Assembly (NCBI GenBank): GCA_963713855.1
Contig: OY970209.1
Coordinates: forward strand, 96,001 to 160,000
Source: an uncultured bacterium
GTDB lineage: Bacteria > Babelota > Babeliae > Babelales > Babelaceae
Direction: 5' to 3'
Length of the DNA stretch: 64,000 nucleotides
The notes beneath the pieces were generated by a model. The model had not been told where the DNA came from and made no database searches. It was given only the letters and a program-made list of their open reading frames with translations. Shown in pieces: positions 128 to 62,469 of this stretch; within the stretch, counting starts at the first letter, position 1, and the number at the start of each line of letters is the position of its first letter. A program made the translations under genes and the position numbers.

Positions 128-422
128 TAGCTTTCCCTAAATAGCTCAGTCAAAGAGAAATAGGCGCCTACGCGGCGAGCGCTCATAAGCCTGTACACAG
201 GCTTTATGACCCTTGACCCACTTCTTAAACTTTTTATGTGGGTTTAATATACCAGAAAGGGAACTCCCTTTCTGGTATATGTGCCATGAGATAGACCCGG
301 TAAACCGGGTCTATCTCATACACAATAAGCATGTAACACTCAAACAACAGGTGCAGGACAATGTCCTGCCGCGCGCCGAGTAGGCGTATTTTTCCCTCAT
401 TTTTATTTAGGCACAGAAGCTA
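128..422. repeat. Nested-palindrome element A (MITE/REPIN-like)
   Basis: Imperfect outer inverted repeats (128-133/417-422, 136-143/404-411, 155-181/370-394) enclose perfect 16-bp stems at 247-280 and 286-319 and further stems at 183-209 and 353-369. Confidence 0.8.
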
Positions 423-47719: not shown

Positions 47720-47752
47720 GAGGCAGGGTTATGCACCCTGCCTCTTTTTTTT
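47720..47752 (+). terminator. Intrinsic terminator
   Basis: 10-bp stem GAGGCAGGGT/ACCCTGCCTC plus T8. Confidence 0.85.
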
Positions 47753-47754
47753 GC

Positions 47755-47910
47755 CCTTTTTTGCACGAAGTGCTTGCATGTAACGTAAGACACGTGTCGT
47801 GTCTTACGTTTATTTACGGGCAACGCCCGACTGGCTTGAGGTGCAGGAGGCACATAAGCGCGGGACCCTCGCTTTATGTTCCCGCCGCTGAACGCGTAGT
47901 TCGCTTTTTT
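47755..47910 (+). repeat. Structured element B
   Basis: Homologous to 58339-58470 (minus strand) with compensatory stem changes. Confidence 0.85.
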
Positions 47911-48009
47911 TGTAGTTTGCTTTTTTTAAAGCCACTATTTTAACAGTTGCATGCTTACGACCTTCCTCTTATACTGTTAAAAAGGCCTTTACCAAAGGAC
48001 ATAACTACT

Positions 48010-48744
48010 GTGCAATCGATGGAACTTTTTGAGCAACATACCTGGCGACCCTTTGAGGCTATGGGTTTTACGCATTCTTTTTGGTCTCTCAACAGAGAAA
48101 CGATCCTTTACACATGGGTTGTCTTAGGCATACTTACAGTATTTGCCCTTTTTGTGCGCTATTTTATACGCAGGCCTGATACGATTCCTGGAACTATTGC
48201 GGAGACGTATGTACGTTCGTTCATGCAAATGATTACGCAGACGCTTGAGTATTTTGAGTATCGTTACTGTGCTTTTATCGGATCACTTTTTACGTTCATT
48301 TTCGTATGTAACGTGCTCATTCTTTTTCCCTACATGGAAGAGCCGACCAAGGATATTAACACGACGCTGGCACTTGCGATTATTTCATTTTTATACGTAC
48401 AGAAAGAGTCTATTCGTGCTCATGGTATTGGTGGCTATATTAAGGAATTTTTTAAGCCCTTTTTCATTTTTTTCCCACTAGAAGTACTTGGGCGGCTAGC
48501 GACTGTTGTATCACTTTCATTTCGCCTTTTTGGAAACATTTTTGGCGGCTCCATTATTAGCACCATGTGGAATTACGCTATATCAGGCTCGATTTTAGCT
48601 CAGATTGCTGGTACTTTGCTTGGTATAAACATTGTAATCATGCTTTTTTTTGGTATTTTTGAAGGCTTTATCCAGGCCTTTGTATTTTCTATTTTAAGCT
48701 TAACGTACCTTTCTATGGCAGTTTCTGAGGAGCAACATGAATGA
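48010..48744 (+). CDS. atpB: F0F1 ATP synthase subunit a
   Basis: PTKDINTT, SLSFRLFGN (essential Arg), IQAFVF..L...Y; start GTG 48010 or ATG 48019. Confidence 0.93.
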   Translation: MQSMELFEQHTWRPFEAMGFTHSFWSLNRETILYTWVVLGILTVFALFVRYFIRRPDTIPGTIAETYVRSFMQMITQTLEYFEYRYCAFIGSLFTFIFVCNVLILFPYMEEPTKDINTTLALAIISFLYVQKESIRAHGIGGYIKEFFKPFFIFFPLEVLGRLATVVSLSFRLFGNIFGGSIISTMWNYAISGSILAQIAGTLLGINIVIMLFFGIFEGFIQAFVFSILSLTYLSMAVSEEQHE

Positions 48745-49675
48745 CCTAGCCCACTCATTCACAGTCGCGTCATTGGTTGTTCTGCCTGCCTTAGGTGTAG
48801 GCATTGGCCAAGGTCGCGTGAACAAGGCTGCTGTTGAAGCGATTAACGAGCAGCCTGCTGTTGAAAGCGCTATTAGGCGATTAGCACTTATTTCACTCAC
48901 CTTAAGTGAAACGGCTGTACTTTTAGGCGTCGTTATGGCGAGTCTGATTCTTCGTGGCCCTGTTTTAAAAGCACCGCTTAATCTTTCTTACATCGGAATC
49001 ATCTTTGGCTGCGCTATTCCTGGCTTTATGGTCGGTCTTGTATCTGCGGGTCCTGGTATTGCTGCTCTAAAAGCTGCAGCGCGTCAGCCGCTTTTCATTG
49101 CCAAAATTACTCAACTTTTACTGATTAGCCAGGCCGTTATTCAAACTTCGACCATTTTTGGCTTTATTATAGCGCTCGTTTTACGAAGCCAGGCTTCGAC
49201 AGGAAACTCATCTGATGGCATACGCCTATGTATGAGTGGGGTATGCTTTGGTATTGCGGTTATCGGACCACTTTTGGGCCTAGGCTTTTTTACGAAAGCG
49301 GTGTGCACTGTTGCAGGCCTTAACAGAGCTATTTACCCGCGCCTTAGAACCTTTGCTTTTATAAGCCAAGCGCTTATAGAAGCACCGGTCGTTTTTTCGC
49401 TTATCATCGCACTTGTTTTAGCTATAAGCGGATCTAAAAGCCCCTCTATTGCAAGAAACGCAGCTTTTATAGCGGCAGCATTTATTATGGGACTTACAAC
49501 GCTTGCAACAGGCCTTAATTCAAGCCGCACTGCAACAACCACCGCCAAACTTCTTTCTAAATACCCTGATCAGTACCCTACCCTATCGAAAATGAGCATG
49601 GTCACCCAAACCTTCATCGACACTTCAGCAATTTACGGGCTTCTTGATTGCCTTATCATACTCTGGGCAAGCTAA
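48737..49675 (+). CDS. atpE: ATP synthase subunit c, four fused hairpins
   Basis: Directly after atpB; GVGIGQG, EQP and RQP loops; four ~75-aa c repeats. Confidence 0.85.
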   Translation: MNDLAHSFTVASLVVLPALGVGIGQGRVNKAAVEAINEQPAVESAIRRLALISLTLSETAVLLGVVMASLILRGPVLKAPLNLSYIGIIFGCAIPGFMVGLVSAGPGIAALKAAARQPLFIAKITQLLLISQAVIQTSTIFGFIIALVLRSQASTGNSSDGIRLCMSGVCFGIAVIGPLLGLGFFTKAVCTVAGLNRAIYPRLRTFAFISQALIEAPVVFSLIIALVLAISGSKSPSIARNAAFIAAAFIMGLTTLATGLNSSRTATTTAKLLSKYPDQYPTLSKMSMVTQTFIDTSAIYGLLDCLIILWAS

Positions 49676-49753
49676 AAATCGGACATTAATCATTGATTTT
49701 TATCTATAATTTATTCTAATATAAAATTATAAGTTTTATTAAACGGAGAATGT

Positions 49754-49975
49754 ATGAAAAAGCACGTACTATGCTTGACGCTCTTTCTTTTCATGTCTTC
49801 TGGAGTGCAAGCACTTCATGAGGCATCTTACACTAAATCAAACTCATGGGCCACGGCCATTGAAAAATTACTGTCTCCACTCTTTCAAGAATTAATGCCC
49901 GCAGATGAAGTTACAAGTTGGATCTCATGGGCTAGCGGATTAGTCAAAAAAGTCGCATCAACAATAAGCGAATAA
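49754..49975 (+). CDS. Small secreted protein
   Basis: SD GGAG; signal peptide ending VQA. Confidence 0.6.
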   Translation: MKKHVLCLTLFLFMSSGVQALHEASYTKSNSWATAIEKLLSPLFQELMPADEVTSWISWASGLVKKVASTISE

Positions 49976-50067
49976 AAGCTGCCCTTTGTTATTTTTAAAA
50001 AACGGTAAATCACACCAAATTGAACTGTCACCTAAATATTCCCAAGCAGATGTGCCAAAGCAAAATT

Positions 50068-51348
50068 TTAACTATTAATCAACTGAGCATTCTCTCCCGT
50101 GCGCCGATTGTGCAGGTATCTCTTGAGAATGAACCCGGAAACCACTGCCGCAGCAACAAAAACAACGGCAGCACCGGCTCCCACACTAACACCTATAACA
50201 CAATCCATATTACAACTCTTGTTACTGTTATTTCCATTATTGCTCTTGCCACAGCCGAATACAGTGACATCATTTGAATTCTCATTAGCAGTAGCAATAT
50301 ATAAGCTGCCTGGTGAAAAGGCGATTGAATTCGCGCCGCTCGACTCAGATGGTAAATTAGTCACTTCACTTTTGCTCAATCTACCTTCATTGTCTACGTC
50401 AAACAGTGCTATTGCGCTAGAAGAACCACCAATAACAATAGCCAGGTACATACCATTTGGTGAAAATGCCGCAGCAGTGAAATAGCCGTAAAAGGAAGGT
50501 AATGCGTATGAGGTGCCCTTACTCAGGGAGCCATCTGGCTCCACACTAAATATGGTTACGTCAGCTGAAAGAATATTAGCAGTAACAAGATACGAGCCGT
50601 TGGGTGAAAAAGATACGGAATTGGGAGTTTTAGAGCCGGAGGGTAATGCATATGATTTTCCTGTGCTCAGTTTGCCGTCTGGGCCGACACCAAAAATCGT
50701 CACATCGCGCGAATTCTGATTAGCGATAGCTAAAAGGGCACTATTTGGTGAAAATGCTATCGACGTAGGAGTAGCTGTCCCCGATGGTAATGCATATGAT
50801 ATTCCACCCGTTAGAATACCGCCAATTCCTACAGTAAACACGCTAATATTAGTTGAACCGATATTAGCAGTAGCAAGATATGAGCCATTGGGCGAAAATG
50901 CTAGGGCAATAGGTTGATAAGAACCAGAAGGCAGCGAATACGAAGCAGCAACTTTCGAGACACTCCCATCTCCTACAATATTAAACACTGTTACATCATT
51001 TGATTCACTATTGGCAGTAGCGAAATACCGGCTATCGGGCGCAAATGCTGCTGCACAAGGATTTTTAGAGCCCGACGGTAAAGGAAGCGAAATAGGTGTA
51101 CTTAGCACTCCAGACTCTTCGACGTTAAACACTGTTACATTATTTGAAACAGGAGGTGGAAAACTTCCTTTGTAAATAGTTGCTGTAACAAGGTATGAGC
51201 CATCGGGTGAATATACTACTGATGAAGGTGCTGAAGACCCGACTGGTAACGCATAGGAAGTGCCGCCATTATTTAGGGAGCAATCAGCATTGAGTCTTCC
51301 GTTTGTTGCCATTACTAGTAGCGTAGCAAGTAAAGTTGTGTTGTTCAT
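50068..51348 (-). CDS. 7-bladed beta-propeller (lactonase-like repeats) surface protein with C-terminal TM anchor
   Basis: Signal peptide, seven ~46-aa SYALPSGS..P..AFSP.G.YLATAN repeats, Asn-rich linker, TM helix, basic tail. Confidence 0.85.
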   Translation of the reverse strand: MNNTTLLATLLVMATNGRLNADCSLNNGGTSYALPVGSSAPSSVVYSPDGSYLVTATIYKGSFPPPVSNNVTVFNVEESGVLSTPISLPLPSGSKNPCAAAFAPDSRYFATANSESNDVTVFNIVGDGSVSKVAASYSLPSGSYQPIALAFSPNGSYLATANIGSTNISVFTVGIGGILTGGISYALPSGTATPTSIAFSPNSALLAIANQNSRDVTIFGVGPDGKLSTGKSYALPSGSKTPNSVSFSPNGSYLVTANILSADVTIFSVEPDGSLSKGTSYALPSFYGYFTAAAFSPNGMYLAIVIGGSSSAIALFDVDNEGRLSKSEVTNLPSESSGANSIAFSPGSLYIATANENSNDVTVFGCGKSNNGNNSNKSCNMDCVIGVSVGAGAAVVFVAAAVVSGFILKRYLHNRRTGENAQLINS

Positions 51349-51976
51349 CCTGTTCTTTCCCAGTAGATTACTTGACAGTTTTCACGGCACTATATAAGCA
51401 CTGTTGACTCTAATGGGGTAAAATTTTAATGTCAACAATCGCATACATCTAGATTGGGTATCACAAGAAAAAGAAATATGCCGCTATGGGTGAAGAATCT
51501 TCAGCTATGAAGCAAGTACCTGATAGCTAATGAAAGTAATTAGCCTTTAGACGCCGAACTCATACGCACATGACCTAAAATTTGATGAATGATTTTTCTG
51601 GCAATGTTTCAAATATAGTTCCTGCCTGTGCACCATATAACCCTTGATGAGCCCCAGCTATCGTTTGACCCAGGTAGTTAGCTCGTTGGTGGGTAGTCGA
51701 TGAGCGTGTTTTGAATGAACTTGAGGCTATGAAGGTGCAAAACATCTTCTAAGACCGTTTACTTAACGCTATTGTTTTTAGAAAGTTTAGCGAGATTTTG
51801 AATTTGTTAAAGGAGAAAACTAGTATAGAAAATATAAGCAGTCTGAAGTATTCCATTACTATTACAAAATTACAATGCTGAAATTTTAACCACTTTCACT
51901 ATTTTAGTACCAAATAAATAGTCGAAACATAAGTTCGAATAAAATGCGCGCACGCCTTGCGGCTCAGAATAAGCGA

Positions 51977-52699
51977 CTATGTCATACTGCGATCTTTCAA
52001 CACATAGAGTTTATGAACATCAATATATTTGATTACCTTGGAGTCAACAAACTCATAAACACTTAAACCGCGCGATATCATCGAGCGAACGGCTGAAGAG
52101 CTTATGGTGTTTTCAAAAGGCGAAGGTACGACAAACAAAGCATTTTGGTGCTTTTTTAATATTTCGTTATTGTTAATAAGCGCAGTAAGAGGAATACCAA
52201 AGCGAGGTATTACGAGTATCCCATGGTTATCATCCATCAGCGTTTCTTGATCCTCTAATGACCATAGCCCTGGGGTATTAAACGAGCTTAAAAGATCAGC
52301 CCCGCATACGAGAAAAACTCGGACGTCTCGTTTGTAACAGTCATTTAAACCTTTGCGTAAGTGCTCAATAACTGAAACTGTGGTCTGATACTTTTCTTGC
52401 TCAGCTTCCCAAGTATCAAGCGCTATCCAAGAAGAACGTTCTAGTGCTAATTGCGCCATAGCGATTCTATCAGCAGATGGAGCAAGCCCTTCTTTTTTGT
52501 AGGCGTCTGATACTGGAGATATAAAGCCACCTACAACGTATATATCGGGACGCACGCGACTCAAATGATTTTTACCACTTTCAAGCATTTCGAGGTGAAA
52601 AAGGGTAATGGGCGAAAAAGAGCCACAAGCTATAAGAACGGCGGGTTTTCGCGCATCCCATTCTAAGATTGGCGCCAATTTTGAGCAATCAATGGACAT
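51977..52699 (-). CDS. Nicotinamide/nicotinate mononucleotide adenylyltransferase, eukaryotic NMNAT type
   Basis: ACGSFSPITLFH, SPVSDAYKKEGL, DTWE, CGADLL.SF..P.LW, ISSS.VR, YI..HKLY. Confidence 0.9.
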   Translation of the reverse strand: MSIDCSKLAPILEWDARKPAVLIACGSFSPITLFHLEMLESGKNHLSRVRPDIYVVGGFISPVSDAYKKEGLAPSADRIAMAQLALERSSWIALDTWEAEQEKYQTTVSVIEHLRKGLNDCYKRDVRVFLVCGADLLSSFNTPGLWSLEDQETLMDDNHGILVIPRFGIPLTALINNNEILKKHQNALFVVPSPFENTISSSAVRSMISRGLSVYEFVDSKVIKYIDVHKLYVLKDRSMT

Positions 52700-52721
52700 A
52701 GTCTTTATAAATCTTTAGCTT

Positions 52722-53627
52722 TTAATAACCATATACCGACTTGCGATCAGCATCATTCATAAAGGTGACGTGCTTTTTAGCTTGTTCTAGAAGATCTGCT
52801 TCGTACTCAGAAAGCGCAACCTTAAAGCGTTCAGCACGAATAGTTGCTTCGATTTTTTTATAACGCTTTTCATCAGTCTCTTTATGACCTGTTTTTAAAG
52901 GTATTAAACGATCTTCGGTTTTTTCTTTAAGTTTAGTGACTTCAAAGCCACCAGCTGCGGGCTCGATAAAAACGATGTTACCGATGGCCTCATTTTTTAT
53001 AAACCCTTTATCTTTAGGCAAATCTCGAGCTTTAATCACAAACGGCTCACTCCACGCAATCGCTGATTTAAGCGTTTTATTTTTGATCGCGCTTTCAAAT
53101 TCAGTAGCGGGTAGCGTACTTGGCACAAAAGCGTTCAAGAGCGTAAACGTGGCTTCCTCGCGGTCTCCGTGCTTATCCCAATAAGCATCAACATCGCCCT
53201 CTTTTAGCGTTGGCATTTTATTTCTTAAGCGATAAGATTGTGCCTGCTCGATTTCTTGTTGACGCTTTAGCTGCTCTTTTCCTTCCTTGACGGTGTATCC
53301 GACAGCTTTAAAAATAGCCTCAATTTGCTCAAAACCACAATTATTTATCTTTTGCAGTTCTTTAAGAAATTTATCAACCTCTTCATCAGTCACCTTGATT
53401 GCAAGCGTGCGTGCATCAAAAGCCTTGAGCTGCTCAAGAACCATGTCGCGCAAAGTACGTTGTTCACCATTAAGGTTGGGGCGAATATCAAGGGTGGTAA
53501 TAATAACCTTTTCTTGCTGAGGACCAAAAATGATAGCTCGCGTCTGATTGAAAATGATATCTTCGCCAAATGCGCTGACTGACCACAACAATAAGCAGCC
53601 TAAAAACAGTAAAACTTTTGTGTGCAT
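52722..53627 (-). CDS. SurA-like periplasmic chaperone
   Basis: Signal peptide; SurA N-domain pattern VTDEEVD; degenerate parvulin region. Confidence 0.6.
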   Translation of the reverse strand: MHTKVLLFLGCLLLWSVSAFGEDIIFNQTRAIIFGPQQEKVIITTLDIRPNLNGEQRTLRDMVLEQLKAFDARTLAIKVTDEEVDKFLKELQKINNCGFEQIEAIFKAVGYTVKEGKEQLKRQQEIEQAQSYRLRNKMPTLKEGDVDAYWDKHGDREEATFTLLNAFVPSTLPATEFESAIKNKTLKSAIAWSEPFVIKARDLPKDKGFIKNEAIGNIVFIEPAAGGFEVTKLKEKTEDRLIPLKTGHKETDEKRYKKIEATIRAERFKVALSEYEADLLEQAKKHVTFMNDADRKSVYGY

Positions 53628-53690
53628 AAAAGGTCCCCCTCGAAAGCCAGCGAGTAAAAGAGTGATCCTTTACTCGCTAGACTAATTTGT

Positions 53691-54743
53691 TTAGCCAACC
53701 TGCGGCTTTATCGGTTGTGGTAAAGCAGTAGGTTGCGTTGACTGTTCTACAGCCTTCTTTTTACGTTTTTGAACGTAATCCTTATTAACTACTAGTTTAT
53801 ATTTTTCTTTAAGTTCGGCCAGCTTTTTCTCATGCAGCTCATTAAATTTCTTATTTTTAATGACGTGTTGGACTGCTTCTTTGACAGACTCGAAATCGGC
53901 ATACTTAGGCTCTTGGCGGCTTAATAGCTCTATGACACGATACTTGTCATCTGAGCCTTTTACGATTATTATCGTCGGCAAGGTCGCTTTATTTTCAAGA
54001 ATGACGTCTTTTACCGTCTCGTCTAAAAAGCTGCTTCTATTAACAAGGCCATAGTCAACCACGTGCTTATTAGCTTCTTTAGCTACTTGAGCAAAAGTAC
54101 TTGCGCGGGCTTTTTGAGCAAGCTCACCAGCTTCTTTCTCATCTGATACCTCAAAACCCTCAGCCTTTATACCACCAGCCGTTATTAGAAAGGGAGGCTG
54201 CTGAAGCATAGGTTCGGTACTGCGCTCCTGATAGAACTTCTGAGCTTCAGCATCACTGACCGTGACTTCTTTAAGAACCTGATTTTCAAAGGCCCTTAAA
54301 GCCAGGTCTCCATCAACTGCCTCGTGAATCCGAGAAGCATTGCGGACGTATTCAGGCTGATGGTCAAGGCCCGTATCATGTACCCAGTGCATCATAAGCT
54401 CTTTTATGGCCTTGCCCTCGATAATGCGTCCAAATATTTCATCTTGTTGGTCCTCCGGAATAAGAGGCATAAGCTCTTTTATAGAAGGCTCCGTCTGCAT
54501 CATCAGCAGGATATCTCTTTCAGTATCTTCTCCAGTTACTACTGGTTTTTCGTTTAAAGAAACGACCGTTTCACGAAGCAAAACAGGATCATATCCTTCA
54601 AGTTTTACGTCTTCATGCGCGTGAGGGCAACCGCACGAAGCATTTTTGACCATTTTCCACGGCCAGTAATCACAACCAGGTAGCAGCGCAATTGCTGACA
54701 GTAACAGTACATGACTTAGAAAATAACGTGAACGCTTTATCAT
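53691..54743 (-). CDS. PpiC/PrsA-like foldase lipoprotein
   Basis: Lipobox LPGC; VSDAEAQKFY, FAQVAKE, FESVKEAV. Confidence 0.65.
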   Translation of the reverse strand: MIKRSRYFLSHVLLLSAIALLPGCDYWPWKMVKNASCGCPHAHEDVKLEGYDPVLLRETVVSLNEKPVVTGEDTERDILLMMQTEPSIKELMPLIPEDQQDEIFGRIIEGKAIKELMMHWVHDTGLDHQPEYVRNASRIHEAVDGDLALRAFENQVLKEVTVSDAEAQKFYQERSTEPMLQQPPFLITAGGIKAEGFEVSDEKEAGELAQKARASTFAQVAKEANKHVVDYGLVNRSSFLDETVKDVILENKATLPTIIIVKGSDDKYRVIELLSRQEPKYADFESVKEAVQHVIKNKKFNELHEKKLAELKEKYKLVVNKDYVQKRKKKAVEQSTQPTALPQPIKPQVG

Positions 54744-54827
54744 AAGTGCCTCAATGTTTATTGAATAATAGGTCCTGTTTACGCTGTGTAGCGTATCACA
54801 GAACTTTACATACTGCAAAAGCGGTAG

Positions 54828-55475
54828 CTAGACCGCTCTACAAGCAACAACAGCAGAAAGGCTATTAAGCTCTAAATGTTCTAATGCCTCTGCTGCTGCT
54901 CGAAGCGTTGACCCAGTCGTTACAAGGTCATCAACCAAGATTATGCTTTTCGATTGCCAGTGCGCTCGCATGGCATTACTCATAAAAGCACCCGAACTAT
55001 TTTCATGCCTTTGTAAAATCGTCAAACCCGACTGAAAATCTGTCTCTTTTGGCCGTAAAAGTAAGGAAACTACAGGTATCTGCCACGCTTTTGAAAGCAC
55101 ATGGGCTATGGTAGAAGCCTGGTTAAAACCCCTTGCAGCATACCGTTTCCAATGAAGTGGAATCGGCACTAAAGCATCAGCTTTCTGGAGCTCTAATTGC
55201 TCGGCCATTAAAATACCAAGATGCTCTGACGCCGCTTGCACCCCAGAATGTTTTGCAAGAACAAAAGTTTTTAAAGGCTCTTTATATGCTCCAAGAGAAG
55301 ATACCTGCATCACCTTACCGCTAGAAATCGGGATGCAAAACGGAAGCGTGCCTTCTATAGCGTTCTTACATACTCCACATAAAGGCGTATCCTTTTTTGT
55401 CAACGCGTGACAATAAAAACAGACATAAGGCAAAAAAGCGTCCCTAAAACAGGCAACTAGTGATTCAAGCATCAT
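54828..55475 (-). CDS. comF: ComF-family competence protein (phosphoribosyltransferase fold)
   Basis: CxxC..CxxC, VPIPLH...RGFNQ, LVDDLVTTGST. Confidence 0.88.
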   Translation of the reverse strand: MMLESLVACFRDAFLPYVCFYCHALTKKDTPLCGVCKNAIEGTLPFCIPISSGKVMQVSSLGAYKEPLKTFVLAKHSGVQAASEHLGILMAEQLELQKADALVPIPLHWKRYAARGFNQASTIAHVLSKAWQIPVVSLLLRPKETDFQSGLTILQRHENSSGAFMSNAMRAHWQSKSIILVDDLVTTGSTLRAAAEALEHLELNSLSAVVACRAV

Positions 55476-55930
55476 TAAAATGGGTTGAAAAAAGCATAAC
55501 AAGAGCACCGACCACAATAGCAACATCAGCTGCATTAAAAAGCGTGGGAAATTGCCATTGGCCAAGAGCCACGCTGCAAAAAATCCACCACGGCACCATA
55601 CCAAACTCTGTCGATCAAGTTACTCACAGCCCCTGCAAGAATAAGGACCTCGCCAAAGAGAGTTTTGTGCGTTTTATAGCGCTCATACGCATGGACGCAT
55701 AAAGCGAGTATAATAAACGCCAAACCAATCGAGAGCAAAAACCAGGAGAGCCACGTCCTTGCTTGAAACATCCCCCAAGAAATGCCTTTGTTATAAAGAA
55801 GCTCGCATGTCAGGCCCGGAAATAATGTACGAGGAGAGGCACAGTAATAAATAGCCGCCAGTTTTGATAATCGGTCAATAAGGAAAATACTGATAAAAAG
55901 TAACAAGTACCTTTCTATCTGGCTCTTCAT
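55465..55930 (-). CDS. lspA: Lipoprotein signal peptidase (apparent +1 frameshift in a T6 run near 55580)
   Basis: DRLSK, NKGISW, SNLIDR, VVDF, then FNAADVAI in the +1 frame ending at TGA 55465. Confidence 0.88.
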
Positions 55931-58242
55931 CGTATCGTTGCTCCTTTTTGACGTAATCGCTCAGAGACCCTACTACTTACCTCGTCGATTTCGTCTTTGG
56001 TTAACGTCTTATCAGCATCACACAGCCTGTAGCGTAATGTTATCGCGCGCTGGGCGAACCACTCCGAACGCTCATAATAATCAACAAGCTGTACATGCCT
56101 AATACGTTCATCCTCATTATATATCGCCCGTTCAAGCTCGCTCACGGTCATTTCTACTGGTATAAATATGCTGACATCAAGCTCAGTGCAAGGATACTTT
56201 AGCAATTGCTGTACCTGAACTCTCGGTTTTGCAAATTGTTTAAGAAAAGTACCATCGAGCTCAGCAATACAGGTAAAACCCGCAATCTCTTCTACTTTTG
56301 TAGATCCGATACCAACATAGCCTACATGCTGACGATCACAAAATAACGCAGCTATTTGGTTTGGGCTATACCAAAAAGGTATCTCTCCCGTAGGCTTTAC
56401 CCACTCAATAGATGCTCCAATAAGGTCGAATAAGGAAGAGACAGCTGCTTTAAATTCATAAAAATTGGGTTGCTGCGCACTGTGCCATATAAAGCTGAGT
56501 GAAGACCCTTCACGTATGCTCTCTTTTTCCAAAGACCATAGACGATTCCATTCAAAAAACCGTACATCGTGCGCCTGTGTTTTATTCATTGTTACAGCTT
56601 TAATAAGGTGCGGAACGAGCGAAGCGATGAGGCGCCGCGCGTTTTGCGATACTGGATTATTAAGCTCAATGTCTTGATCGGGTTTAAAGCCCAGTACACG
56701 TAAAAAATCTTCATCGTAAAAAGGGTAACTTGCTATTTCATGCATTCCAAGAGAAAACGCGCAATGATTTTTTAAAGCTCGTATACGATTTACTACATGA
56801 TTGTCAACAGGACGCATTAAGCGCGCTGGAACCGTTGCATGAATATTGCTGTAGCCAATTAATCGAGCAACTTCTTCAACGGCATCTTCGCGTAAGCGAA
56901 TATCGCCTTGCCTAAAAGTAGGTACCAAAATTGTATACTCTATTCCTGAAGAAAGAAATTTCTCTTGAACGCCAAATCCCAACTTAGAAAGCGTTGCGCG
57001 AACATCTTCTGGCAAAAGCGCGCTACCAATTTTTTTAGTAATATACTCATGCGTTACGGTAATGGTGCGTTCAACGGCGGGAAGGCCCAAAGAAACAATG
57101 TCCGGTGAACTATCAGCTTTAATACCCCACGCTTTAATAAGGTATAAAAAGCGCATAAGAGCAGTAACATTTTGATTCGGATCAAGACCTTTTTCAAAGC
57201 GCGACGAAGCTTCTGTTCTCTTTTTGTGTTCAATCGAACTGCGCCGTATGGCTACGGGACGAAAATGCGCACCTTCAACGACAATCCTGACACTTGAAGT
57301 GCGTACAGCAGCATAAGATCCCCCCATAACGCCTGCGAGCGCAAGCGGCTTTGTTGAATCTGCTATAACACAATCTTTTTCGTTAAGCTCAAGCACGGTA
57401 CCATCGAGTAATTCGATACGCTCTGAAGGCTTTGCCATGCGTGCTTTCAACTGAGCTTCCTTAATAGCAAGGCCATCAAAAGCATGCAGTGGTTGGCCAA
57501 GATCATACATCACATAATTGGTAGCATCGACGATTGCATTGACGGGTTTACCTCCAACCAGCACCAGGCGCTGTGCCACAAAAGGTATCGATGACACATT
57601 ACTAACGTGATTTAACGTGAGAGCTGCAAATCGATCGCATACTGGTTGAGCGTCAATGCGCAGCGTAAGACCGTCAATTACGCCAGTCTGCTCATAATTT
57701 TTAACTAAACGGGAAGCAATAAGTTGGTCTTCAGGCACGAGAGTTACTGAAAGCAATGCGGCAATTTCACGAGCAAACCCGCGGTGACCCCATAAATCAG
57801 GTCTGTGCGTAAGAGACTTATTGTCGATTGTTATAATGTAGTCCTCTTTTTGCAAAGAGGCCTTCCATAAGCCTTCTTTGTCCGATGCGGGAACATAAAG
57901 AGCCGGCATCAGGCCTTCTTTTTCGCCGTGAAAATCGAGCACAGTAGCATACGAAACTTTTTCACCTTCGCGGCGCACTAAATAAAGACCGTCCAAAACT
58001 GCATCAGGACGTAATGGCAAGCGTACCTCTTTTTGCATTTCCGGCATAAAAAAGAGTGCTTGACCCTTCTCTATGCTTTTAAGCTCAGCAAGAGCAAAGG
58101 CGCTTAAATCAAAAGAAACTTTACAATACGAATCAATTTCTGCTGTAGAGGTACTCAGTTTCTGAATGAGCTTATCTACGGACACATCCTGTAACCGCAC
58201 ATCAAGAATATGGTCAAAAATCCACGCAAGGGATAATTTCAT
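55927..58242 (-). CDS. pheT: Phenylalanyl-tRNA synthetase beta subunit
   Basis: HRPDL, VDATNYVM, LAGVMGG, RFEKG, EEVAR.IGY, FDX-ACB tail; pheS is not adjacent. Confidence 0.95.
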   Translation of the reverse strand: MKLSLAWIFDHILDVRLQDVSVDKLIQKLSTSTAEIDSYCKVSFDLSAFALAELKSIEKGQALFFMPEMQKEVRLPLRPDAVLDGLYLVRREGEKVSYATVLDFHGEKEGLMPALYVPASDKEGLWKASLQKEDYIITIDNKSLTHRPDLWGHRGFAREIAALLSVTLVPEDQLIASRLVKNYEQTGVIDGLTLRIDAQPVCDRFAALTLNHVSNVSSIPFVAQRLVLVGGKPVNAIVDATNYVMYDLGQPLHAFDGLAIKEAQLKARMAKPSERIELLDGTVLELNEKDCVIADSTKPLALAGVMGGSYAAVRTSSVRIVVEGAHFRPVAIRRSSIEHKKRTEASSRFEKGLDPNQNVTALMRFLYLIKAWGIKADSSPDIVSLGLPAVERTITVTHEYITKKIGSALLPEDVRATLSKLGFGVQEKFLSSGIEYTILVPTFRQGDIRLREDAVEEVARLIGYSNIHATVPARLMRPVDNHVVNRIRALKNHCAFSLGMHEIASYPFYDEDFLRVLGFKPDQDIELNNPVSQNARRLIASLVPHLIKAVTMNKTQAHDVRFFEWNRLWSLEKESIREGSSLSFIWHSAQQPNFYEFKAAVSSLFDLIGASIEWVKPTGEIPFWYSPNQIAALFCDRQHVGYVGIGSTKVEEIAGFTCIAELDGTFLKQFAKPRVQVQQLLKYPCTELDVSIFIPVEMTVSELERAIYNEDERIRHVQLVDYYERSEWFAQRAITLRYRLCDADKTLTKDEIDEVSSRVSERLRQKGATIR

Positions 58243-58338
58243 GCTTTAATACCCTTTATTACGCTCTAAAAAGCTCATTTATATACAGAATACGCAAAAA
58301 GCACAAAAGCAGCAACTTGATCAACCTTAGAGAACTTT

Positions 58339-58470
58339 AAAAAAACGAACTACGCGTTCAGCGGAAGGAGGCTAGCCTCCTTCACCTCAAGCAAGTATGG
58401 CGTTGCCAGTAGATAAATTTAAGACACGGCACGTGTCTTAAATTGCATGCAGCACTTCGTGCAAAAAAGG
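58339..58470 (-). repeat. Structured element C
   Basis: Homologous to 47755-47910. Confidence 0.85.
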
Positions 58471-58705
58471 ATAGCGAAAACCTAGAGCACATGACTTACG
58501 CTCTGAGGCGTTTGGATGTAATCAATTACTTAGCTCTTTTAAGAATGAGCTCTCCCAATTTTCTACTAGTGCTCACGTTCAGCTCATGAGCTTTTTTCAG
58601 TTCACCCTTCTCCCAAAAGAATTGCCGTACTAAACACGTGCTTTTTAAAAGCCTATGAAAATCGATCAGCACGTGTTATGATTTTCACAAACCTTAGGAT
58701 TTAAT

Positions 58706-61822: not shown

Positions 61823-61864
61823 AAGCGAACTATTAGTTATTATTATTTGTTCTCCAGAGAATCT

Positions 61865-62007
61865 ATCCGCCGAGGGCGGATTGCTATTGCCTCAAGAACA
61901 AATGTTCTTGAGGTATAATTTCAAGATTTAAATCAACGGGTGCAGGGCGCAGCACTGCCGCTCTACGCGGAGTAGCGCCCGCTGCGTAAGCGCGACTTTA
62001 GCTTTTT
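61865..62007 (+). repeat. Structured element D
   Basis: Stems at 61865-61881 and 61890-61913; CAACGGGTGCAGG...CTGCCGC shared with 345-372; two pentaloop hairpins at 61963-61975 and 61980-61992. Confidence 0.75.
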
Positions 62008-62469
62008 TTAAAATTCGGCCCATGATCCATCCTCGTACGCGGCGCGACTTACGTAGGTATGTGCGGCGATGGTTGTAGAAATGCGGTAGAAGCATGCCCC
62101 TTCTTTATTACTCAGGTAAACGGAGCCTGCATCGGTGTGTCCACTTGGGTAAAAAACTACTCGATCGTGGCTAAACGTAAGAGCTCTAGAAGATGGTGCT
62201 TTAAACATCACTGGATCTTGTAGGTGGTGTATCAGCCCATCTTTGACCTTATAGGCGTTTTGGTTTTTTAAAAACGTGAGCGTGACCTCTTTGTTGCTCG
62301 AGACTGCCTCCTGCTGGAGGGAAAGAAAAATGAGATAGAGCCTGTTGCAAGCCATTCGCACACGTAGTTCACCAAAAACTCGAAACGACACGGAGGTGCA
62401 AAACGCCAAAAAGCTAACAAGAACGCAAACAAGGACAAGCTCTAGGAGCATGAACCCTTTTCGCGCCAT
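62008..62469 (-). CDS. Minor pilin/pseudopilin (GspH/FimT-like)
   Basis: Class III signal KG|FMLLEL; VVFYPSG..AGSVYL. Confidence 0.75.
   Translation of the reverse strand: MARKGFMLLELVLVCVLVSFLAFCTSVSFRVFGELRVRMACNRLYLIFLSLQQEAVSSNKEVTLTFLKNQNAYKVKDGLIHHLQDPVMFKAPSSRALTFSHDRVVFYPSGHTDAGSVYLSNKEGACFYRISTTIAAHTYVSRAAYEDGSWAEF

Follow-up and report, generated by a model that had tools for sequence, protein, structure and literature searches.

In a 64,000-nt stretch of DNA from an uncultured bacterium of the Babelaceae (GenBank assembly GCA_963713855.1, contig OY970209.1, positions 96,001 to 160,000; here called the window), two copies of a hairpin-rich repeat, B and C, lie upstream of atpB and pheT, respectively. 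Judging from their sequence and that of related genomes, B and C are probably one-ended members of a family of palindromic repeats resembling miniature inverted-repeat transposable elements (MITEs) and Rickettsia palindromic elements (RPEs), inserted, once the lineage of G001 had branched off, in spacers that run from a terminator to the following promoter. G001 is the only genome of the same genus that was compared and shares 65–74% DNA identity, across long matched stretches, with the window's genome (G000), which is complete in a single contig of 1.52 Mb. An earlier note on this DNA had offered a new cis-regulatory or small RNA motif, or a mobile repeat, as explanations. The mobile repeat is the best supported of these because a two-hairpin module contained in B and C recurs 24 times in the window's genome and 48 times, at different places, in G001, usually as inverted ends; the cis-regulatory option is not supported, and a stand-alone small RNA is possible but less likely.

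The two copies, with the parts of B, are located as follows (window positions, as throughout unless marked otherwise).

47755–47911, + strand: copy B, one-ended repeat unit, 157 nt
47757–47762: 5′ T run of B
47763–47773: H1 of B, GCAC GAA GTGC
47782–47810: H2 of B, 13 bp
47818–47828: H3 of B
47843–47885: H4 of B, long form with a palindromic tip insert
47890–47902: H5 of B, GAAC GCGTA GTTC
47905–47911: 3′ T run of B
58339–58470, − strand: copy C, the same unit as B, 132 nt; hairpins as in B, H4 short

As the earlier note had described, B and C align along their length (156 columns, 87% mean column identity, indels of 1 nt and 23 nt) and each contains five local hairpins (H1–H5). H1 is GCAC-GAA-GTGC in both copies, and H2 is in both a perfect 13-bp stem with a 3-nt loop, the stems differing by a CG/CG versus TT/AA change. 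H3 reads GGGC-AAC-GCCC in B and TGGC-AAC-GCCA in C. The stem of H4 varies in length and is built on the base G(C/A)AGGA..TCC(C/T)(G/T)C; copy C has GAAGGAGG CTAG CCTCCTTC, with an 18-bp palindrome (AAGGAGGCTAGCCTCCTT) that has no spacer, and in B it is longer by an extra palindromic piece at the tip. H5 is GAAC-GCGTA-GTTC in both, followed by seven T. Among the 18 substitutions between B and C, 10 fall in stem columns and yield four double, compensatory changes with no pair broken, bearing out the compensatory changes reported before. When 18 substitutions were placed at random 200,000 times, the probability of four or more compensatory pairs was 2 × 10−5 and that of no broken pair 1.5 × 10−4, values somewhat flattered by a structure derived from the same two sequences. 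The structured resemblance of B and C with its compensatory changes is therefore real and beyond chance. Clean compensatory changes between two copies alone do not imply a riboswitch or a small RNA, as palindromic repeats give the same signal. A 70-amino acid (aa) open reading frame (ORF) runs across B and has no counterpart across C. RNAalifold could alternatively pair the CUGAAC segment with a GCUUGAG that lies upstream. A long-range pairing of an upstream hexamer with CUG-NN-C, assessed by eye, was attractive in three genomes and was dropped as it failed in the left ends of elements in G063.

The 3′ third of B and C proved to be a two-hairpin module, GGTGCAGG..CCTGCCGC, with the loop GCGTA. 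Its H4 has the conserved base GGU-NN-AGG..CCU-N′N′-CGC and a tip of free length, and its H5 has a 4–6-bp stem and the conserved loop GCGUA. Across 261 genomes of the phylum, the pattern CCGCTG-NN-CGCGTAG-NN-C was found at 13 places in eight genomes, compared to none for a reversed-pattern control; the NN pairs were complementary at 12 of the 13 places in five combinations (AA/TT, GA/TC, GC/GC, CA/TG and GT/AC), and the places in G044 and G182 resemble coding sequence, where chance is possible. A module model built from eight module sequences of three genomes (R2) gave 24 matches in the window's genome and 48 in G001 at places other than in the window's genome; B scored 51.3 bits (47838–47903) and C 55.5 bits (58346–58388). 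Further matches were obtained in G064 (22), G008 (12), G063 (10), G185 (3) and G162 (1), and G076 and G230 also matched; there was no match in G012, G029, G004 and G003 or, with stricter filters, in the other 147 of the order's 151 sampled genomes. The covariance-model search proposed in the earlier note thus places the module, patchily, in eight other genomes of four families. A strict regular expression counted 28 modules in the window's genome, 26 within two-ended elements of ~300 nt and the other two being B and C. The module sequence of B and C (CCGCTG..) is nearer to that of G008 and G063 than to that of the two-ended copies at home (CCGCTCGCC..).

The whole unit is far more restricted. 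A covariance model of the complete B/C unit (R1) matched only B and C in the window's genome and gave a single match among 40 other genomes of the family, a partial one in G008 that covers H4–H5, with H5 changed in a compensatory way. When B was compared with 60 relatives by BLAST, nothing beyond a 22-nt match was returned. The earlier description of 'two copies' accordingly holds for the whole 130–155-nt unit and fails for its 3′ two-hairpin part, which is multi-copy; a diverged third unit (D, 61860–62008, described below) has to be added as well. Exact-pattern searches for blocks of B/C found two loci in genome contigs (a Chloroflexota and a Paraburkholderia metagenome-assembled genome), 3, 9, 13 and 0 loci in viral contigs for four patterns and 23 loci in metagenome contigs; all were taken as chance because R1 gave at most 16.5 bits on any of them and aligned only at the typed block. 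At the gathering score, Rfam 15 had no match in the window besides two tRNAs, in agreement with the earlier failure to recognize a riboswitch, T-box or ribozyme in B or C. With E values up to 10 there was nothing meaningful at B (best 9–15 bits against cut-offs of 50–181), and at nine module loci, from other genomes and a second site in the window's genome, only tRNAs and antisense echoes of tRNAs were found. Group II intron remnants, ribozymes, tmRNA, signal recognition particle RNA, 6S RNA and omega or bridge RNAs were discarded, there being no Rfam match and no associated gene.

The pairing of the module was assessed over 44 matches (37 distinct), in which 91.9% of cells were paired compared to 71.3% in shuffles; none of 500 shuffles reached the observed value. 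Double changes were present at nine of the 12 module pairs, and slid registers fell to 31–47% paired. The 44-module alignment was fitted to the model, which favours pairing; an independent MAFFT alignment of the eight module sequences gave the same picture. Together with the P value of about 2 × 10−5 for B and C, these figures uphold the proposal of the earlier note that covariation indicates selection on structure. Outside the stems, the module conserves GGU on the 5′ side of H4, CGC(U) at the junction of the two hairpins and GCGUA as the loop. Wobble was rare, with seven G·U against four A·C among 421 cells (G·U, 1.7%) and no strand bias, an A·C cell being a G·U on the opposite strand. Functional RNAs typically have more wobble pairs, and on one strand only. 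The scarcity of G·U, the use of both orientations and the spacer-less palindromes fit pairing at the DNA level as much as at the RNA level.

The elements that carry most of the modules were identified with a profile from four copies, which recovered ~21 copies of a ~290–340-nt element in the window's genome. Aligned with one another, 20 copies have two perfect hairpins in the centre (TACCAGAAAGGG.. and GAGATAGACCGG..) and an outward-facing module at each end, with ~40 nt more of shared sequence beyond H5. The two-ended elements carry the module equally on both strands. One complete copy lies within the window.

138–428 (genome 96138–96428), + strand: complete two-ended ~300-nt element, nhmmer match; modules facing outward at 164–213 (−) and 348–387 (+)

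The sequences on either side of this copy lie far apart in G001, with synteny broken and no empty site readable, and another two-ended copy is found just beyond the end of the window (genome 160328–160664). Among the R2 matches in the window's genome, four module pairs face outward as inverted ends. The same arrangement recurs elsewhere: elements in G063 are 350–430 nt long with the module as their inverted ends, and outward-facing module pairs lie 290–470 nt apart in G064, G008 and G001.

Several observations bear on movement of the two-ended elements. By eye, 19 flanks on the left and 16 on the right were inspected; at most copies, similarity stops on both sides next to CTAG or CTAA, which have TA at their centre, and this suggests duplication of a TA target of the IS630/Tc1 kind. 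The genes beside four G063 copies are unrelated to one another (a class II tRNA synthetase of the D/K/N type, superoxide dismutase, ankyrin, patatin and Fic). In G001, a two-ended element separates lspA from a comF-like gene (G001:C2:741180-741590), while in the window's genome these genes overlap without an element; the positions of the family thus differ from one congener to the other.

Two-ended copies differ from one another by whole palindromic pieces at hairpin tips, just as H4 of B differs from H4 of C, and many of their ends contain an extra CATAAGAGTCA.. hairpin. Four copies (genome 430931–431294, 974538–974908, 1197377–1197701 and 22354–22670) carry a structured insert of ~70 nt (AACCATACCATGCC..GGCATGATTGG..) in H4 on the conserved base, an extreme case of the free-length stem. 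Intrastrand template switching is a mutational process by which imperfect palindromes are corrected, and it could by itself generate compensatory changes, in which case the units may be unconstrained, decaying duplicates. The changes are exactly symmetric within perfect palindromes and the length changes are palindromic tip inserts, as such a process would leave them. We nevertheless regard a purely mutational origin as very improbable, as the unpaired bases and the architecture are kept across four families while the stems change, and none of the 10 stem substitutions breaks a pair.

A looser scan of the genome for sequences like H5 added only one locus, at 61937–61992, to those already known; the 10 other matches are at chance level, given six in a reversed-genome control. 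This locus belongs to a third unit.

61860–62008, + strand: copy D, diverged unit, between two convergent genes

D consists of a GAG-triloop hairpin, a perfect hairpin of 10 bp (12 with G·U), a module-like part in which an H5-like hairpin occurs twice in tandem, and a T run. R2 scored 28 bits at 61937–61976, and R1 aligned with D from end to end at 18.3 bits (E = 4.5 × 10−6 in a 501-nt search, ~0.01 genome-wide). The H1 and H2 stems of D are paired, with sequence wholly unlike that of B and C. By its sequence, D reads as a third, older unit of the B/C architecture. The order of parts in B, C and D (two hairpins, linker, H4, H5 and T-rich tail) is that of the right half of a two-ended element, and the three units look like one-ended relatives of these elements.

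We then compared the surroundings of B and C with G001. B is bordered by atpB and, on the other side, by the intrinsic terminator that ends a 474-aa gene, so that the earlier statement that B begins right after a terminator was correct. C lies between a 48-aa ORF (58526–58672, −) and pheT, divergent from a gene for a DUF4143 ATPase. The 48-aa ORF ends 56 nt before C and is followed by a weak hairpin and a T-rich stretch.

47720–47752, + strand: intrinsic terminator of the upstream 474-aa gene, directly before B; 10-bp stem (7 GC pairs) at 47720–47744, then a T run
47947–47975, + strand: putative atpB promoter TTGCAT-N17-TATACT, between B and its gene; also conserved in G001
58287–58315, − strand: putative pheT promoter TTGCTG-N17-TATTCT, downstream of C; G001 has TTGCTA-N17-TATTCT

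Both copies are sense to the next gene and ~100 nt upstream of it, as noted before; the measured distances are ~107 nt from B to the atpB ATG at 48019 and ~96 nt from C to the pheT ATG at 58242. On the side of atpB, G001 has the gene order of the window, and atpB and pheT are oriented to each other as they are there. In these syntenic regions of G001, both units are absent. The spacer between terminator and atpB is ~160 nt in G001 compared to ~306 nt in the window's genome, and the empty site there reads TTGCC-AAAAA-TCTAAAC. The spacers are otherwise poorly conserved, and each keeps one block in both species, AGTTGC(A/G)TGC..TTATACTG before atpB and TTGCT(G/A)-N17-TATTCT before pheT. A consensus promoter scan called neither of the conserved hexamer pairs, and we read them as promoters from their conservation. 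The earlier note had proposed to look for empty-site alleles; in G001 both sites lack the unit. The T6–7 runs on either side of B and C could represent a target duplication or belong to the unit itself, between which the diverged G001 site does not discriminate.

These comparisons speak to the proposal that B and C are cis-regulatory 5′ leaders, either riboswitches or attenuators, of atpB and pheT. Their position ~100 nt upstream of and sense to both genes, and the alternative CUGAAC/GCUUGAG pairing, would suit a leader, and riboswitches, T-boxes and leaders in Rfam 15 are likewise covarying, multi-hairpin elements upstream of and sense to a gene. B and C nonetheless match none of these families, and R1 found only the one partial module match when 40 other genomes of the family were searched. 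The genes on either side of D are convergent. As both units are absent from the orthologous genes in G001, B and C are therefore not conserved leaders, even without the putative promoters; if the conserved hexamers downstream of B and C are promoters, the elements would also lie outside the presumed 5′ untranslated regions. With start sites placed by these hexamers, B and C are close to refuted as leaders regulating atpB or pheT, and we consider this reading extremely unlikely.

B, C and D all sit in spacers that separate transcription units, as could also be expected of DNA sites for a host protein, such as a palindromic operator, a nucleoid or insulator site or a back-up terminator. The perfect palindromes of H2 and of H4 in C (18 bp, no spacer) and Watson–Crick pairing on both strands would agree with this function. 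Operators, by contrast, keep their bases rather than swapping them for complementary ones, and the H1 and H2 sequences of D are unlike those of B and C. The units are also absent at the same genes in G001, and the neighbourhoods have no regulator gene in common. A protein-binding site is in our judgement quite improbable.

A different possibility is that the three units encode small RNAs or are modules at the RNA level, with hairpins that serve stability, processing or protein binding in the transcript, that H5 and the U run form the 3′ end and that the two-ended elements merely carry the module. The three units all end in a T run after the module, and their folds are stabler than those of shuffles (z = −2.2, −3.1 and −4.0 for B, C and D, respectively; −3.98 for D). 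The conserved unpaired bases (GGU, CGCU and the loop GCGUA), the free-length stem on a conserved base, the strong covariation, the T run after H5 and the sense orientation of B and C to the next gene are likewise what an RNA would show. On the other hand, no convincing −35/−10 pair is readable inside the conserved unit, where scans found none, and a strong terminator precedes B. H5 itself hardly qualifies as a terminator, being too weak: its stem in B and C has 4 bp and one G·U before the seven T, and an intrinsic-terminator scan called neither. The T run is not kept elsewhere, G008 having an A run and G063 and G001 other sequence. Lastly, the module occurs equally on both strands of the two-ended elements, and G·U makes up only 1.7% of cells, about as rare as A·C. 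A function of the unit or module at the RNA level, the main rival reading, is possible but doubtful.

The RNA-like features just listed, from the unpaired bases to the sense orientation, also weigh against B and C being members of a mobile repeat family, as do several properties of the units themselves. The module of B and C is at one end only, and no reverse-complement copy is readable at the 5′ end. Outside the module, B/C and the two-ended elements have no detectable sequence in common; a profile of the two-ended element ends aligned to C over the module only and not over its flanks. B, C and D, the only modules outside two-ended elements, lie within 14 kb, which local duplication fits equally well. 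No target-site duplication is readable with certainty at B and C, as the T runs flanking them may belong to the unit.

The absence of a matching enzyme counts on the same side. Five transposase families of Pfam were searched, namely PF01797 (Y1_Tnp), PF13358 (DDE_3), PF01609 (DDE_Tnp_1), PF00665 (rve) and PF01548 (DEDD_Tnp_IS110), with none matched in the window's genome; as controls, these profiles matched five to nine of 14 named genomes. PF01797, the Y1 family that includes REP-associated tyrosine transposases (RAYTs), had no match in the window's genome and matched six of the 14. DDE_3 genes were detected in 13 of 41 genomes of the family, with four in G001 and three in G008. The four genes in G001 are of the IS630 type and apparently intact (355–369 aa), and the inverted ends of one copy (G001:C2:319932-323351), ATAGACATCACA.., are unrelated to the ends of the repeats. 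DDE_3 is absent from the module-bearing G063 and G064 (77% and 74% complete, respectively) and present in the module-less G002 and G025. An IS630 partner was rejected on these grounds, that is, other ends in G001 and a DDE_3 distribution that does not track the module. No outward-facing module pairs 1–3 kb apart were seen in the lists of R2 matches. The window's genome thus has ~21 repeat elements with no match to five common transposase families of Pfam.

The module is kept in at least four families of this phylum of intracellular bacteria, and it multiplies in a complete 1.5-Mb genome devoid of any transposase family tested. These two facts could be accommodated if the module were the recognition element of a novel mobilising enzyme, or else an RNA motif, such as a processing or binding site or a self-cleaving one, that is spread by repeats, with B, C and D as the minimal one-module form. 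We rate this proposal as rather unlikely. If B and C are instead palindromic repeats of the MITE/RPE kind, as we favour, the module would be the site recognized by whatever copies the elements, and the stems would stay complementary because a hairpin or palindrome at the DNA level is recognized or templates its own repair. The insertion of B and C, each into the gap that separates a terminator from the following promoter, would then postdate the divergence from G001, and neither copy would regulate atpB or pheT as a leader.

We next set the family against known repeats. MITEs are short and non-coding, which applies to B and C (132–157 nt); their terminal inverted repeats are missing from B and C and present in the ~300-nt relatives. 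Many dispersed copies whose presence varies between relatives are a property of the module, whereas the whole unit comprises B, C and D only. No autonomous partner with the same ends was found in the window's genome among the five Pfam families. Some bacterial MITEs duplicate a TA target, for example the Correia elements of Neisseria. The family described here is similarly short, non-coding, multi-copy and intergenic, with inverted ends and no transposase of its own, and its two-ended copies have TA at both ends (by eye) and differ in presence between related genomes. B, C and D depart from this type in having one end only and no inverted ends, and the family as a whole departs from it in that a conserved subterminal two-hairpin module with a conserved loop takes the place of a plain terminal repeat. 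The IS630-type transposases of the congener have other ends, and the window's genome has none.

RPEs are repeats of reduced intracellular genomes that also occur inside genes. The likeness is one of general features, namely a length of 100–300 nt, abundant hairpins, tens of copies, a small genome without recognizable transposases and patchy occurrence in relatives; the copies examined here are intergenic, while RPEs are also found within genes. Repetitive extragenic palindromes and their composites (REP, BIME and REPIN), which are mobilised by RAYT (Y1) transposases, are also short multi-copy palindromes with a conserved GTAG, often in inverted pairs. The present family differs from them in that the window's genome has no Y1 gene, the GTAG lies in the loop and 3′ stem of H5 rather than 5′ of the palindrome and the units are much longer. 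The kind of element is ordinary and the repeat family is new: nothing in Rfam matches it, and the listing of full-text literature on MITEs and inverted-repeat elements of Dependentiae showed no account of such repeats, the papers listed concerning arthropod mites or being unrelated.

An understudied intracellular phylum thus harbours a repeat family with a sharply conserved, covarying module, present in tens of copies per 1.5-Mb genome and at sites that differ in congeners. Such repeats are useful as strain markers and cause assembly breaks and rearrangements, and they make one ask by what means mobile DNA survives in genomes that have been reduced. B and C themselves form inverted repeats of ~130 nt, 87% identical, around a 10.4-kb block from atpB to pheT. 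Recombination between them could in principle invert this block; no inversion has been fixed, as the relative orientation of atpB and pheT is the same in G001. Within the block, atpB is followed by a 312-aa ORF (48737–49675) in which two stretches match ATP-synt_C (PF00137). For a c subunit this ORF is unusually long, perhaps because its start is wrongly set or because the subunit is fused or duplicated. The gene after it is on the opposite strand, and the atp cluster looks short there.

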